Positions 38,762 to 46,379 of a DNA stretch of 64,000 bases are shown piece after piece. Source of the stretch: Escherichia coli (lineage in GTDB: Bacteria > Pseudomonadota > Gammaproteobacteria > Enterobacterales > Enterobacteriaceae); assembly GCF_024502345.1 (NCBI RefSeq), contig NZ_JALDNN010000002.1; one strand, given 5' to 3'. Within the stretch, counting starts at the first letter, position 1. Each line of letters starts with the position of its first letter. The translations under genes and the position numbers were made by a program. The notes beneath the pieces are model-generated. The model made no database searches. It was not told the origin of the DNA and was given only the letters and a program-made list of their open reading frames with translations.

Positions 38762-40163
38762 CTTAACGAATGGAAGGGACTTCCCCTAGATATGCGCCTG
38801 ATTAACTTTCGTGCAATCATAGGATAAACATTGACCCAGAGGGATTCGTTATGACCATCACCACTGTCGGTATCGATCTTGCTAAAAATGTGTTTGCTGT
38901 TCACTGCATTGACCAAAATGGTAAAGCTGTTCTGGTTAAACCCAAGGTGTCGCGTGCAGCACTTTCTGAACTCATCGCAGGTTTACCTCCCTGTGTCATT
39001 GGAATGGAAGCCTGCTCGGGTGCCCACTATTGGGCAAGATTATTCAGGCAGTATGGCCATGATGTCCGGTTGATGGCTCCGAAATTTGTCTCACCCTATC
39101 GCATGGCGGGTAAGACCGGGAAAAATGATGCAGCTGATGCAATAGCTATTTGTGAGGCAGTGCAGCGGCCGCATATGCGCTTTGTACCAGTCAAAGACGA
39201 AAGCCAGCAGGCAATGCAATGCTTACATCGGACAAGACAGGGATTTATCCAGGAAAGAACAGCAACGTATAACCGTCTTCGGGGCCTGATATCTGAATTC
39301 GGGGTTATTGCCCCACAAAGCACTGATGCTCTGCGTCATGTTGTTTCTGACCAGAAGGAAACTCTGCCAGTACAGGTTAGGCTGTGCATTGATGATCTAT
39401 TGACACATGTCACTAATATTGAAGAGAAAATCGCCGAATATGACAGGGTATTATCTCGTGTGGCCAAAACAGATCATCGCAGCCAGCAGTTAATGGAACT
39501 GAAAGGTGTTGGGCCCACCACAGCGAGTGCGCTGGTCGCCAGTATTGGCAATGCCCATGATTTTAAGAACGGGCGCCAACTGGCAGCCTGGTTGGGGCTA
39601 ACGCCATCACAATACAGTAGTGGCGGAAAATCAAAGCTTGGCAGGATAACAAAAGCGGGTGATGCCTATCTGCGAACCCTACTGGTCCAGGGAGCCCGTT
39701 CTGTAATGGTAGGGGCAGAGAATAGAACGGACCCGTTTAGCCGTTGGGTCTGCTCGTTGATTGGTAGGCGGGGATACTGGCGTGCTGTCGTTGCAATCGC
39801 CGCCAAGAATGCGAGGTTGTGCTGGGCATCATTACATTACGGCGATGACTTCAGACTGTATTCAACAACATGAAAAATTTAACTGAGTAGTAACTGAACT
39901 GTAAATTGTTGATGGTAAAGGGTTAGACCCCCGTGAGAAGTATCTGCATATCCTACTGGATATCACTATCCGATTAACGAAGGAGGATCTCACGAGCGTC
40001 TTTCATCAGGGTCCGAATCACTAGCGATTCAGCATGACCGTTTATAGTAGCGCAGTCTTATCCCTTGCCTTTCATTGATGAACAGACAGAAATTAAAAAC
40101 CGGCGTTGACTGTTCGGGGAAGCCCTTATAGTAGGATAATTTCCGAATTCCAAGCGGACCCCC
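38762..40163 (+). mobile_element. IS110-family element copy 2 (about 1.4 kb), inserted in mrkJ
   Basis: About 80% nucleotide similarity to copy 1 over its whole length; right terminus ...CCAAGCGGACCCC. Confidence 0.7.
38851..39873 (+). CDS. IS110-family transposase
   Basis: 340 aa MTITTVGIDLAKNVFAVHCIDQNGKAVLVKPK... Confidence 0.9.
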   Translation: MTITTVGIDLAKNVFAVHCIDQNGKAVLVKPKVSRAALSELIAGLPPCVIGMEACSGAHYWARLFRQYGHDVRLMAPKFVSPYRMAGKTGKNDAADAIAICEAVQRPHMRFVPVKDESQQAMQCLHRTRQGFIQERTATYNRLRGLISEFGVIAPQSTDALRHVVSDQKETLPVQVRLCIDDLLTHVTNIEEKIAEYDRVLSRVAKTDHRSQQLMELKGVGPTTASALVASIGNAHDFKNGRQLAAWLGLTPSQYSSGGKSKLGRITKAGDAYLRTLLVQGARSVMVGAENRTDPFSRWVCSLIGRRGYWRAVVAIAAKNARLCWASLHYGDDFRLYSTT

Positions 40164-40585
40164 AGAAGGATATAAAAGCCAAAATCGCCGCCCTGACCTG
40201 CGTCCATTTCGAGGTAACCGAAAACGCCGAGAATCTGCTGCATAATTCTCTTGCCGCCTGGCAGAGCCCACAGGATACCTCACTGTGGCTCGACGACTTC
40301 GGCTCCGGCTACGCGGGAATTAACGCTATTCGCGGTTATCACTTTGACTATGTGAAAATTGATAAGGATTTTTTCTGGCACCTGATGCGCAAAGAGTTCG
40401 GCCGCCAGCTGATGGATGCGCTGGTGACCTTTTTATCGCGCAACCATCATAATGTGATTATTGAAGGTGTCGAAAGCGAAGCCCATAAAGAATGGCTGCA
40501 GGGAATGGAGTGGTTTGCTATCCAGGGACATTACTGGCGGGAAGTCAGTATTGAACAACTGGTCGCCGATGATATTGCCATGTAA
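40164..40585 (+). pseudogene. mrkJ: EAL-domain c-di-GMP phosphodiesterase MrkJ, C-terminal about 140 codons (N-terminus removed by IS110-family insertion)
   Basis: EAL motifs DDFGSGYAG, KIDKDFF, EGVE; convergent with mrkF across a shared terminator. Confidence 0.7.
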
Positions 40586-40616
40586 AAAAAGCCGGGAATT
40601 CCCGGCTTTTTAACGT
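40586..40616. terminator. Bidirectional rho-independent terminator between mrkJ and mrkF
   Basis: AAAAAAGCCGGGAATTCCCGGCTTTTT perfect hairpin with flanking A and T runs. Confidence 0.85.
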
Positions 40617-40619
40617 CAC

Positions 40620-41285
40620 TTAATTATAAACTAATTCCCACGTTGCCCAGCTGGTAATCGGCCCGCTGGTGGCGCTTTTCGGCGTTGGCGAAACATAGCC
40701 AACGTAATAGGTGAACAGGCCGCCGCTGACCGCGCTTTCCTGCAAACGCACCTGATTTTGCTGCGGGTCCGCCGGGACAATTTTATTACTCTTATCCAGC
40801 GTATTATTATCGTTAGTCGATAGCGCCAGATAAATATTCTGCGCTCCATCCGGCAAGGTATTGGCCAGATACCCGGCGTTTTCGTTACCGACCGCCGTCA
40901 GTAAAAAACCATCGACCCAGCGCACGCTGACCCGACGCACCTCATCCTGCGAGGCTGCCCCACCATCATGGCGCAGCTGGCAGTTTGACAGTGCCAGGGT
41001 AAACGGCTGCGGTTTCATAAACGCCCCGGCACCGCGATCGTGGACTTCCGCCAGGCTGACCGGCGCCAGCCAGACATTACCGCTGCCGGCATGCTGGCCG
41101 CCGTTTAGCGCGATGCTACAGGAAATATCCGTCACCCGCCCGGCAAAATCGACCCGTCCGCGATCGTAATTCGTCTCGAATCCCCACGCCGAGGAGGCAA
41201 TAAGCGTCCCGCTTATCAGGGCCAACTGAATGAGTCGTGTGCTATTTTTATACTTTGCTGAATCACTCATACCCGCCTCCCGCAT
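40620..41285 (-). CDS. mrkF: Type 3 fimbrial minor subunit MrkF
   Basis: Fimbrial subunit-like, last gene of the mrk operon. Confidence 0.75.
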   Translation of the reverse strand: MREAGMSDSAKYKNSTRLIQLALISGTLIASSAWGFETNYDRGRVDFAGRVTDISCSIALNGGQHAGSGNVWLAPVSLAEVHDRGAGAFMKPQPFTLALSNCQLRHDGGAASQDEVRRVSVRWVDGFLLTAVGNENAGYLANTLPDGAQNIYLALSTNDNNTLDKSNKIVPADPQQNQVRLQESAVSGGLFTYYVGYVSPTPKSATSGPITSWATWELVYN

Positions 41286-44736: not shown

Positions 44737-44747
44737 TAGCTTTTCCC

Positions 44748-45449
44748 TTATTTAACGGCCACTTTCACTGCGACATCGGCGCCATAGTCATTAATGTTGT
44801 TAACGGTCAGGGTTTCGCCGCGGTTGACGGCGGAGGAGAGCGCCACCGTCTGGCTGGACTGCGGCGCCAGCATCACGGTTTTGCTGTTCAGGGCTTTACC
44901 GCCGTCGCGGGAAATACGGCTGACGGTAATGTAGAACGGCGTCGGGTTGTTGATGGCGAGACTACTGCCGCTGGCGGTCAGGGTCAGCTTCTCGGCCGCC
45001 GCATCGCGGTTGCCCAGTCCGGCAGGACGATAAATAAATTTAAAGCGCGAACGGATCGCCAGCTGCAGCACGTTCTGGCCTTCATTTTTCTGATTGGCCA
45101 CCACCGGCGGAATTTCCAGCAGATTCAGCCACCACAGCGTCTCTTTATCTTTCGCCAGACCGGCGCTGCTACCGAGCTTAATACGCAGCGTCTGGCCGCT
45201 CTTGGCGTCAACGCGCGAAATCGGCGGGGTGATAATAAACGGGGTGGTAATGGTATCCGGTGTGGCATCGGCATCGCCGTTATCCAGCCAGGCCTGCGCC
45301 AGCGCCGGACGGTCGGCGTTATTTGAAAGCTGTACCGTTATTTCTTTTTCATTTCCTGGATAAATAAAGCGGGTACCGTTAACAATAATATTGTTGGCAT
45401 GGGCCGCAAAACTAAAAATGAAACAGAAAAAAAGGGCAATACGCTTCAT
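44748..45449 (-). CDS. mrkB: Fimbrial periplasmic chaperone MrkB
   Basis: PapD-like chaperone, about 233 aa with signal peptide. Confidence 0.85.
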   Translation of the reverse strand: MKRIALFFCFIFSFAAHANNIIVNGTRFIYPGNEKEITVQLSNNADRPALAQAWLDNGDADATPDTITTPFIITPPISRVDAKSGQTLRIKLGSSAGLAKDKETLWWLNLLEIPPVVANQKNEGQNVLQLAIRSRFKFIYRPAGLGNRDAAAEKLTLTASGSSLAINNPTPFYITVSRISRDGGKALNSKTVMLAPQSSQTVALSSAVNRGETLTVNNINDYGADVAVKVAVK

Positions 45450-45544
45450 GCTGACCTCAGAATAAAAATACAAGCGGCGGACATTGCCGCTTTATTATTG
45501 TTATTAACTGCCCCATCGCGGGGCAGTTTTATTTTCTGACGGAA

Positions 45545-46153
45545 TTACTGGTAAGTAATTTCGTAAGTCGCGTAGCTGTTAACCACACCGGTGGTTACCG
45601 TGGTCGGCGCGCTGGTGGCGTAGCCTACGTAGTAGGTGAAACGCGCGCCATCAGCTACAGCGGAAGCGTCGCCTTTCGCTTTCGGCTGAGTGCTGCCACC
45701 CGGGATGATTTTGTTGGTCAGCGCGGTAGCGTTGTCAGTAGACAGCACCAGCTGGATGTTCTGAGCACCGGAAGCTTCGGTGTTCGCCAGGTAGCCCTGT
45801 TGTTTGCTGGTTGCGCCAGCCAGCAGGTTACCGCCGGTCCAGTTCACGCCCAGTTTGCTTACGTCATCCTGTTTAGTGCCATTAGCAGCCTGGCACTTAG
45901 AGACGTCAATGGTGAAAGATTTCGGTTTCAGGTAAGTATCCGCTGCTGCCGCTTTAACTTCAGTCAGGGTTACCGGAGACAGGTAAACGTTCGCATCGCT
46001 GCCCTGGCCGTTAACGGAAACAGTACAGGATACATCGGTAACTTTACCGAAGAAATTAACCTGGCCGCCGCCAACAGTGGTATCAGCTGCATGGGCAGCA
46101 GTCATGCCAAAAAACGCGGTTGCCATTGCTGCAGAGAGAAGAACCTTTTTCAT
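45545..46153 (-). CDS. mrkA: Type 3 fimbrial major subunit MrkA
   Basis: [61 protein letters not shown]... matches Klebsiella MrkA as recalled. Confidence 0.92.
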
Positions 46154-46379
46154 TGCCATTTCCTTGTCAGAGTGAATTACGAATCAATGAGCACACTGTG
46201 AATTCGCATAGAACCAGAAACATCAGGCGATGCTGATTTATGCCACTGCTAATAGAATCTTCGACTGACCGGGAGCCGCAATATTTAAGGCGTCAGGTAA
46301 CGAACCTAAAAATATAAGTTCGCTGGTGCTATCGGCGTCAAAGAATGCTATTTATTCGCCGACAAATATACATTTGTTC

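Follow-up and report, generated by a model that had tools for sequence, protein, structure and literature searches.

On the 64,000-nt stretch of an Escherichia coli contig analysed here (NZ_JALDNN010000002.1; hereafter the window), genes for type 3 fimbriae stand next to a shortened mrkJ and an IS110-family element. This arrangement raises the question of what cut mrkJ, and whether its loss matters for fimbrial expression. An initial annotation, made from the sequence, held that the IS110-family element had decapitated mrkJ and that the loss of this phosphodiesterase would lock expression high. We favor a different history, which we regard as highly probable, namely that of an mrk cassette with an IS1-derived promoter, in which mrkJ was cut at a Tn3-family inverted repeat (IR) and the IS110-family element, IS5708, came later.

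A complete mrk operon on an IncF plasmid

Read from its genes, the locus is a plasmid-borne, complete chaperone-usher operon for type 3 fimbriae (mrk). The order is mrkA-B-C-D-F on the minus strand (40620–46153), in five full-length ORFs without internal stops, with a remnant of mrkJ convergent on mrkF:

45545–46153, minus strand: mrkA, type 3 fimbria major subunit, 202 aa
44748–45449, minus strand: mrkB, periplasmic chaperone, 233 aa
42250–44736, minus strand: mrkC, outer-membrane usher, 828 aa
41285–42259, minus strand: mrkD, tip adhesin, 324 aa, strongly divergent allele
40620–41270, minus strand: mrkF, minor subunit, 216 aa
40163–40585, plus strand: mrkJ remnant, codons 99–238 and the stop codon, without a native start

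MrkA is 98.5% identical to the MrkA of pOLA52 and of K. pneumoniae, which bears out the near-identity with the Klebsiella subunit that had been proposed. MrkB is 100% identical to its counterparts in the same two sources and matches fimbrial chaperone families, and MrkF is ~96% identical to them. MrkC, which is full length and matches usher families, is a divergent allele (89% identity to pOLA52 MrkC, 99.6% to the allele of the K. variicola plasmid pX39-1), and MrkD has 61% identity to K. pneumoniae MrkD versus 97.8% to the pX39-1 allele. The GC content of the mrkD region falls to 42%, and a blastn search of the K. pneumoniae chromosome with window 41705–42184, inside mrkD, gave no match.

That the operon is complete and plasmid-borne, as first annotated, is upheld by the five intact ORFs and by the presence of RepE at 9239–10042 together with the 99.4–99.9% identity of window 24179–59833 to the conjugative IncF plasmid NZ_CP122443. 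The carrier of the mrk cassette here is an IncF mcr-10 plasmid. The annotation "mrkA" is also found on a 99.9%-identical plasmid, and mrkB and mrkF are likewise annotated on a near-identical plasmid.

The EAL gene had been described as keeping only its C-terminal ~140 codons, and this is what we find: the plus-strand ORF at 40106–40585 is identical to MrkJ residues 99–238 at 139 of 140 positions (E = 1e-106), and the DNA is near-identical to intact mrkJ from nt 294 through the stop codon, homology beginning at 40162. The remnant covers only positions 109–233 of the 236-position Pfam EAL model, where full-length MrkJ covers 13–233, and MrkJ residues 1–98, including the ECL motif (E-x-L) at 36–38, are missing. 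Orthology to MrkJ holds, though the remnant has neither a complete EAL domain nor a start codon of its own. On its sequence, mrkJ is certainly 5′-truncated and inactive here; we consider it a dead pseudogene because its start codon, its promoter and the metal-binding N-terminal portion of the EAL domain are all missing.

The mrkJ breakpoint lies at a Tn3-family inverted repeat

Foreign DNA does meet mrkJ at 40162/40163, where the IS110-family element had been thought to end, but IS5708 stops at 40131 and the 31 bp that adjoin mrkJ belong to an older IR. The segments on this side are:

38613–38761, plus strand: internal part of a 5′-truncated Tn3-family miniature element, from alignment to the complete K. 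pneumoniae pXH210-AMV copy
38762–38768, minus strand: inner 7 bp (CGTTAAG) of the 38-bp IR, cut off from its outer part by IS5708, from comparison of filled and empty sites
38769–40131, plus strand: IS5708, IS1111 group of the IS110 family, 1363 bp, with transposase at 38851–39873 and 3′ non-coding region at 39874–40131
40132–40162, minus strand: outer 31 bp of the 38-bp Tn3/Tn21-family terminal IR, GGGGTCCGCTTGGAATTCGGAAATTATCCTA, to be followed by CGTTAAG; the true breakpoint of mrkJ is at the GGGG end of this repeat

IS5708, the name of which comes from the annotation on a near-identical plasmid, encodes a DEDD-type IS110-family transposase (NCBIfam NF033542, E = 1.2e-106, score 357 against a cut-off of 140), and its ends were set by comparing the filled with the empty site. 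In plasmid pBD-50-Eh_3, without IS5708, the 38-bp repeat is uninterrupted, the outer 31 and inner 7 bp being contiguous, and the mrkJ breakpoint is unchanged. The filled site, CTTAACG–IS5708–TAGGATAA, against the empty site, CTTAACGTAGGATAA, marks the insertion as site-specific and without target duplication. In PLSDB, 18 plasmids have the breakpoint at mrkJ nt 294 beside an unsplit IR without IS5708 while only 3 carry IS5708 there, and thus the truncation of mrkJ preceded IS5708.

The target preference of IS5708 also points to the repeat. Guide-like segments at 39949–39956 and 39974–39979 match the flanking IR, not mrkJ, the 258-nt 3′ non-coding region holding TATCCTAC (the right flank in reverse complement) and TTAACG (the left flank) 25 nt apart. 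A relative of IS5708 at 7264–8630 occupies the corresponding position in a second 38-bp GGGG...CGTTAAG repeat. The guide pairs match each element's own target with covariation, turn up in no more than 4 of 5000 shuffles, and agree with the seekRNA model for IS1111-type elements (PMC11187229).

The full miniature element, as found in pXH210-AMV, is 286 bp long, has no ORF and no transposase, and ends in a pair of 38-bp terminal IRs (GGGG...TAAG), the arms of which (L011 5799–5836 and 6047–6084) are 82% complementary. The element is widespread on enterobacterial plasmids, and in the window the similarity to its Klebsiella plasmid copies begins at 38613. There is no 5-bp target duplication at the pXH210 copy (flanks TTGCA and CCTCT) or in the window, where the truncated copy is flanked by GGTCA and CAGAA, and PLSDB yielded no reciprocal junction, in which the 5′ part of mrkJ would lie beside the opposite IR of this element; for these reasons the exact event that removed mrkJ codons 1–98 can only be inferred. 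The likeliest route would be transposition into mrkJ, after which the 5′ part could have been lost by intramolecular transposition-deletion or by recombination between copies.

We suggest that the captured segment once extended past mrkJ into the terminal part of mrkI and was trimmed at different points in different plasmid lineages; known captured segments extend, in K. pneumoniae coordinates, from 8826, 9294 or 9726 to 15513. In the present lineage the trim point is mrkJ nt 293/294, where the 38-bp IR of the miniature element has its outer end, and the RNA-guided IS1111-type IS5708 later inserted inside this IR, 31 bp from the breakpoint, with no role in the truncation. Erosion of mrkJ at varied breakpoints is common on plasmids and was described already in 2012 and 2016. 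Several other 5′ breakpoints occur among the PLSDB matches listed, with remnants down to 37 bp.

An IS1-derived promoter upstream of mrkA

On the mrkA side, the following features are found:

46365–46393, minus strand: hybrid mrkA promoter, -35 TTGGCA, 17-bp spacer, -10 TATATT
46380–46393, plus strand: terminal 14 bp of the IS1 inverted repeat, GGTGATGCTGCCAA, giving the -35 hexamer and 8 bp of the spacer
46455–47828, plus strand: second IS1111-type element, 1374 bp, with transposase to 47557 (NF033542, E = 2.5e-111)
47829–48876, minus strand: IS903-like IS5-family element, 1057 bp in total, its first 9 bp at 46446–46454; terminal repeats located

The hybrid promoter is the best promoter-like site of the region in a promoter scan (10 of 12 matches), and it matches the plasmid-type promoter PmrkA[P] described by Madsen et al. 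2016 (PMC5023117). The IS1 end lies 226 bp upstream of the mrkA start codon, and its junction with the chromosome-derived DNA falls inside the promoter spacer. This junction is identical to that beside the complete IS1A of pOLA52, as are the 15 bp before it, GTTGGCAGCATCACC, and the -10 box is ~204 bp upstream of the mrkA ATG, as published for the plasmid promoter (PMC5023117). The native K. pneumoniae mrkA promoter has TTAATG and a 15-bp spacer (PMC3828302); in the hybrid promoter the -10 is native, and the native -35, the UP element and the MrkH box are replaced by the IS1 end. No match to the MrkH box was found upstream of mrkA, and matches elsewhere in the window are at chance level only.

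Beyond the IS1 end, the second IS1111-type element sits in the left IR of the IS903-like element, outside mrk DNA, with the junctions GGCTTTGTT–element–GAATAAATC, and its guide-like segments at 47654 and 47678 match that IR. The transposase ORF of the IS903-like element is at 47876–48844, where the near-identical plasmid has an annotated IS5-family transposase.

The absence of mrkH and mrkI from the window, already remarked on in the initial annotation, stands: tblastn with MrkH, MrkI and MrkJ found neither of them, nor a further mrkJ, within the window besides the remnant. No other EAL or GGDEF signature, mrkH or mrkI is present in the window or in the closest complete plasmid. These negatives cover the window and that plasmid, the remainder of the source replicon not being found in PLSDB, and a distant mrkHIJ copy on the source replicon is formally conceivable.

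It is true of K. pneumoniae that MrkJ represses type 3 fimbriae (PMC5023117), which it does solely through c-di-GMP-bound MrkH acting at the MrkH box of mrkA (PMC3828302, PMC5023117). PmrkA[P] of pOLA52 was measured to be strong and independent of MrkH (PMC5023117), and a promoter that does not need MrkH is out of reach for MrkJ. As there is no MrkH site in the promoter and no mrkH in the window or on the closest complete plasmid, the loss of mrkJ is not expected to alter mrk transcription. The promoter junction is moreover identical in plasmids whose mrkJ is intact. We suggest that the IS1 end, in replacing the upstream control region, created a promoter without MrkH or c-di-GMP input, and that mrk expression is probably constitutively high owing to this promoter swap, not to the truncation of mrkJ. 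The promoter strength on the present plasmid is inferred from the pOLA52 work, and the sequence upstream of the -35 differs from that of the tested promoter because 14 bp of IS1 are present here and a whole IS1 in pOLA52.

Alternative explanations

The account first given for this locus, namely that IS5708 inserted in mrkJ and removed its 5′ part, and that the lost phosphodiesterase raises c-di-GMP and locks the fimbriae high, draws on IS5708 being the large mobile element nearest to the remnant and on the repression by MrkJ in K. pneumoniae. We consider it very improbable. The element stops short of mrkJ at 40131, the empty site and the 18 plasmids with the same breakpoint contradict a cut by IS5708, and its guide segments match the IR; the consequence proposed for expression is opposed by the missing MrkH box and mrkH and by the promoter junction shared with intact-mrkJ plasmids. 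We give even less credence to the reading in which the 159-codon ORF at 40106–40585, from a TTG start within the end of IS5708, is expressed as a truncated EAL fragment that retains some regulatory or c-di-GMP-binding role. Although the frame is open from 40106 and retains the DDFGSG and EGVE motifs, its codons 1–19 come from the IS and the IR, the TTG has no Shine-Dalgarno sequence ahead of it, and plasmids free of IS5708 have a different frame upstream of codon 99. Coverage of the EAL model furthermore starts only at position 109, and the remnants of other plasmids can be as short as 37 bp.

A different question is whether the removal of mrkJ was adaptive in hosts other than Klebsiella, in which an orphan plasmid phosphodiesterase could disturb the c-di-GMP control of biofilm and motility. 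Among the 60 PLSDB matches listed, full-length mrkJ is in Klebsiella in 27 of 31 copies, whereas 24 of 25 5′-truncated copies are in Enterobacter, Escherichia or Hafnia, host counts that are not phylogenetically independent because few plasmid lineages dominate. Several independent mrkJ breakpoints also speak for adaptive removal, but Burmolle et al. explained the pattern by neutral progressive IS erosion (PMC3402527), and we regard selection as unlikely. If it were true, the breakpoints would record the adaptation of the cassette to new hosts, not neutral IS erosion. We return to the IS1-promoter cassette with mrkJ cut at the Tn3-family IR, which is an ordinary, already known cassette type: a biofilm-promoting cassette that has been studied well, found here once more on an mcr-10 IncF plasmid and of little importance outside annotation. 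We point out to annotators that the flanking IS110-family genes are late arrivals within the ends of older transposable elements, that the real boundaries of the mrk cassette are the IS1 end and the Tn3-family IR, and that the IS1-derived promoter, and not the missing mrkJ, should be named as the cause of constitutive fimbriation.

Comparison with known systems

The K. pneumoniae chromosomal locus mrkABCDF-mrkJ-mrkI-mrkH agrees in the order and direction of its genes, mrkJ being convergent on mrkF, and shares near-identical MrkA, MrkB, MrkF and MrkJ remnant, the 5′ UTR and the -10 box. Missing here are mrkH, mrkI, mrkJ codons 1–98, the MrkH box, the UP element and the native -35. Because of these missing parts (mrkH, mrkI, MrkH box, UP element and native -35), MrkH-mediated c-di-GMP regulation is impossible here.

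For the insertion of IS5708-type elements in 38-bp repeats, we take the insertion details of IS4321 and IS5075 to be the fitting comparison. IS5708 and the relative at 7264–8630 each have a fixed position and orientation in a 38-bp GGGG...CGTTAAG repeat without target duplication, and each carries subterminal inverted repeats as well as target-matching segments in its 3′ non-coding region. IS5708 is nevertheless a distinct IS, with ~78–80% DNA identity to the relatives found, and its target IR is in a miniature element, not in a full Tn21-type transposon. Partridge & Hall 2003 is cited by title in PMC11187229. The IMU of Enterobacter cloacae is a 288-bp Tn3-family miniature inverted-repeat element (PMC3184786), and the 286-bp element resembles IMU/TIMEs in size, in its 38-bp Tn3-type terminal IRs and in lacking an ORF, a likeness in described features. 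It is unlike them in having no 5-bp target duplication at the copy examined, and the window copy is 5′-truncated.

The closest systems are the mobile mrkABCDF cassettes (pOLA52/Tn6011, pMAS2027, R485, pLN126_33; IncX1 and others), which have the same IS1-to-chromosome junction at K. pneumoniae coordinate 15513. For pLN126_33, earlier work had described an EAL gene cut short downstream of mrkF and drew it as "incomplete EAL domains" (PMC5023117, PMC3402527). As in the pOLA52-type cassettes, the -35 is TTGGCA with a 17-bp spacer and the same -10, and both the MrkH box and mrkHI are absent. Unlike them, the present cassette has its IS1 cut to 14 bp, followed by the IS903-like and IS1111-type elements; its mrkJ-side boundary is the Tn3-family IR at mrkJ nt 294, whereas that of pOLA52 follows shortly after the stop codon of mrkJ; and it combines a divergent mrkC/mrkD allele with an IncF mcr-10 carrier.

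The mrk Cassette and Its Plasmid

We consider it very probable that the mrk locus is a cassette captured by IS1, with a hybrid promoter that needs no MrkH, in which mrkJ would have been cut where a Tn3-family miniature element ends and would have lost its 5′ part, IS5708 would later have been guided into the inverted repeat of that element, and the mrkJ remnant would be a dead pseudogene, the loss of mrkJ being irrelevant to mrk transcription. The main features are:

9239-10042: RepE
38613-38768 plus 40132-40162: right part of the miniature element
38769-40131: IS5708, 1363 bp
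40106-40585, plus strand: ORF with the mrkJ remnant, convergent on mrkF
40620-46153, minus strand: mrkA, mrkB, mrkC, mrkD and mrkF, in this order
46380-46393: terminal 14 bp of an IS1 inverted repeat
46455-47828: IS1111-type element upstream of mrkA

The window is plasmid DNA, as RepE indicates, and 24179-59833 is 99.4-99.9% identical to pI9455333_MCR10 (NZ_CP122443), a conjugative IncF mcr-10 plasmid of Enterobacter ludwigii. Positions 1-24500 gave mosaic matches only and no full match in PLSDB, from which the exact replicon is absent. By 99.9% identity to the annotated NZ_CP122443, a xerC-type tyrosine recombinase gene (50655-51731) and mcr-10.1 (52098-53717) could be named about 6 kb from mrkA, so that a biofilm cassette and a colistin-resistance gene travel together.

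All five mrk genes are uninterrupted, and the operon reads as complete yet mosaic, since MrkA, MrkB and MrkF are of the K. pneumoniae/pOLA52 type whereas MrkC and MrkD are near the K. variicola pX39-1 allele.

Identity of the Mrk proteins of the window to two reference types
Protein; K. pneumoniae/pOLA52; K. variicola pX39-1 allele
MrkA; 98.5%; 96.5%
MrkB; 100%; 92.3%
MrkC; 89% (pOLA52 only); 99.6%
MrkD; 61%; 97.8%
MrkF; about 96%; 85.2%

The divergent allele spans 41285-44736 (mrkC-mrkD), and its divergence, together with a GC content down to 42% in the receptor-domain region of mrkD, suggests that the adhesin was exchanged by recombinational replacement.

Truncation of mrkJ Preceded IS5708

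The remnant ORF aligns to MrkJ residues 99-238 (139 of 140 identities) and, as DNA, is homologous to an intact plasmid mrkJ from 40162 onward. It covers positions 109-233 of the 236 in the Pfam EAL model, compared to 13-233 for full-length MrkJ, and has neither a start codon nor the N-terminal part with the ECL motif (residues 36-38); that the truncated protein could be functional we hold to be extremely unlikely. The initial annotation was right to describe a complete mrkABCDF with a MrkA near-identical to that of Klebsiella (98.5%), and a mrkJ reduced to its C-terminal 140 or so codons.

The true boundaries come from a comparison with Enterobacter hormaechei pBD-50-Eh_3, which shares the left flank and the mrkJ breakpoint of the window and has no IS. 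Its empty site reads ...GAAAATCTTAACG, then TAGGATAATTTCCGAATTCCAAGCGGACCCC, then CAGAAGG (mrkJ), while in the window IS5708 lies, without target duplication, between CTTAACG and TAGGATAA, ending at 40131 and not at 40163 as first annotated. CTTAACG and TAGGATAATTTCCGAATTCCAAGCGGACCCC together (38 bases) read GGGGTCCGCTTGGAATTCGGAAATTATCCTACGTTAAG on the other strand, which is a Tn3/Tn21-type terminal inverted repeat, and mrkJ begins at its outer GGGG end (40162). On K. pneumoniae pXH210-AMV, this repeat is paired with a second 38-bp arm in inverted orientation, and the two bound a 286-bp, ORF-less element (L011 5799-6084), of which the window keeps the right part only. The unsplit repeat stands directly against mrkJ nt 294 in 18 PLSDB plasmids, whereas IS5708 is found inside the mrkJ-adjoining repeat in only three (from E. 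ludwigii, an E. cloacae-complex strain and Citrobacter braakii). The truncation is therefore older than IS5708, and IS5708 is not its cause.

The exact event that removed mrkJ codons 1-98 we can only infer, since it left no target duplication and no PLSDB record covers the reciprocal junction, in which mrkJ nt 179-298 would adjoin the miniature element by its left inverted repeat (GGGGTCCGCTTGGGAAAGGG...) and which would be proof of a simple insertion of the element into mrkJ.

The miniature element holds a relic of a Tn3-like repeat (window 38716-38752); this was considered as the partner repeat of an 85-bp element and rejected, as the complete 286-bp copy shows it to be internal. A 144-bp junction query matched 203 PLSDB records, and among the 60 listed the large majority, mostly from Klebsiella, match the right 84-85 bp of the element only.

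The mrkA Promoter and c-di-GMP Regulators

Upstream of mrkA, the window is homologous to the K. pneumoniae chromosome as far as 46379, which lies within the promoter spacer. The native promoter (-35 TTAATG, 15-bp spacer, -10 TATATT) is very weak without MrkH, the box for which is centred at -78.5 beside an UP element (PMC3828302). In the window, the best promoter-like site of the region is TTGGCA GCATCACCGAACAAATG TATATT, in which the IS1 end accounts for TTGGCA and for the 8 spacer bases that follow it, and no MrkH box was found upstream of mrkA. A whole IS1A lies at the identical junction in pOLA52. Judged by its structure, the site corresponds to PmrkA[P], the plasmid-type hybrid promoter shown to need no MrkH for strong activity in E. 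coli, and the same study describes plasmid mrk operons without mrkHIJ or with "incomplete EAL domains" only (Madsen et al., 2016; PMC5023117). By analogy, we infer that it would be strong on this plasmid too. The same promoter junction is found on a Klebsiella quasipneumoniae plasmid in which mrkJ is intact, and the state of mrkJ thus does not set the promoter type.

Tblastn with K. pneumoniae MrkH, MrkI and MrkJ gave no further match in the window, where mrkH and mrkI had already been noted as missing, and only the same mrkJ remnant on the closest complete plasmid; the chromosomal mrkHIJ reference was PLSDB record CP125156.1, a 5.37-Mb "plasmid" that is evidently a K. pneumoniae chromosome. 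An EAL/GGDEF signature scan of the window found none besides the remnant, ten other window ORFs scanned against NCBIfam matched no family related to c-di-GMP, and an Rfam scan of 37500-49000 gave zero matches at the gathering threshold. A "diguanylate cyclase" annotated in one partial plasmid match was dismissed, the gene being absent from the window.

The initial annotation had proposed that an IS110-family element decapitated mrkJ and that the loss of this gene would lock fimbrial expression high. While its observations largely stand, neither the cause nor the consequence does: the empty sites, with the same breakpoint and no IS5708 in 18 plasmids, contradict the former, and a promoter of PmrkA[P] type with no MrkH box contradicts the latter. 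We regard this model as highly improbable and favor a cut at the Tn3-family end under a promoter indifferent to mrkJ.

In pBD-50-Eh_3 (L008 14697-15320), an IS630-family element cuts the upstream region about 100 bp from mrkA and removes even the hybrid promoter, so that PmrkA[P] is not common to all plasmid mrk copies. Between the IS1 end and an IS903-like element, 46394-46445 consists of one C, a 29-bp fragment of an IS903-type terminal repeat and IS1 nt 9-30, the last of which duplicates TGCCAA. A fragment of about 190 bp of the IS1 left end (37863-38055), located beyond the mrkJ flank and oriented as the 14-bp remnant at 46380, may be what is left of the original IS1-bounded transposon.

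Erosion of mrkJ Among Plasmids

When captured mrk segments are mapped on K. pneumoniae chromosome coordinates, the mrkA side is one shared IS1 junction and the mrkJ side a series of different cuts.

Captured mrk segments in K. pneumoniae chromosome coordinates
Source; segment; state of mrkJ
K. quasipneumoniae plasmid; 8826-15513; intact, plus last 32 bp of mrkI
Window; 9294-15513; 5′-truncated at nt 294
pBD-50-Eh_3; 9294-15385; 5′-truncated at nt 294
pOLA52; 9726-15513; absent

At least 80% of the gene is retained in 74 of the 136 PLSDB records with mrkJ DNA, and the others have 5′ breakpoints at nt 294, 496, 519, 599, about 634-645 or 681, with a few other forms. Among the 60 listed of these 136 matches, 27 of the 31 full-length copies are from Klebsiella, and 24 of the 25 5′-truncated copies are from other genera. 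That the loss is adaptive, rather than neutral, in non-Klebsiella hosts seems to us unlikely, though worth bearing in mind. Cassettes of different length and a highly truncated mrkJ in pLN126_33 have been described, as has a model in which incoming IS elements trim the cassette progressively (Burmolle et al., 2012; PMC3402527). A paper on mcr-10 plasmids lists "mrkJ" in pEC81-mcr10, where we find the same breakpoint without IS5708. The locus represents one more copy of an established mobile cassette, and its mrkJ erosion is of a type already known.

Targeting by IS1111-Type Elements

The transposase of IS5708 matches NF033542, which places it in the IS1111 group of the IS110 family. A relative in the same window (7264-8630, 1367 bp, 79% identical) has the same position and orientation in a different Tn3-family 38-bp GGGG...CGTTAAG repeat, between GGGGTCAGTTTGGATATAGAGAATTATTGTA and CGTTAAG. 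The 3′ non-coding region of each IS1111-type element has a pair of short segments with a distance of about 24 nt, of which one matches the target flank on the left and the other the complement of the one on the right (39949-39979 in IS5708, 8444-8474 in its relative and 47654-47687 in the third element, upstream of mrkA); when each non-coding region was shuffled 5000 times, such a pair arose no more than 4 times. The segments of IS5708 and its relative covary with their targets (TATCCTAC for GTAGGATA; TATTGTAC for GTACAATA), and those of the third element match an IS903-like terminal repeat split by the IS into GGCTTTGTT and GAATAAATC. As their segments match their targets and they lie within repeats of older elements, the IS110-family genes on either side of mrk both inserted secondarily, into the ends of these elements.

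The third element is inserted between nt 9 and 10 of the left terminal repeat of the IS903-like element (46446-46454 plus 47829-48876) and appears to target IS903-type ends; other mrk plasmids (L002, L006) have the same "IS110 + IS5" pairing several times.

IS4321 and IS5075 are known to target the inverted repeats of the Tn21 family, a habit that the placement of IS5708 resembles. The segment pairs of all three elements also agree with the seekRNA targeting logic published for IS1111 elements (PMC11187229), of which they constitute direct evidence within the window.
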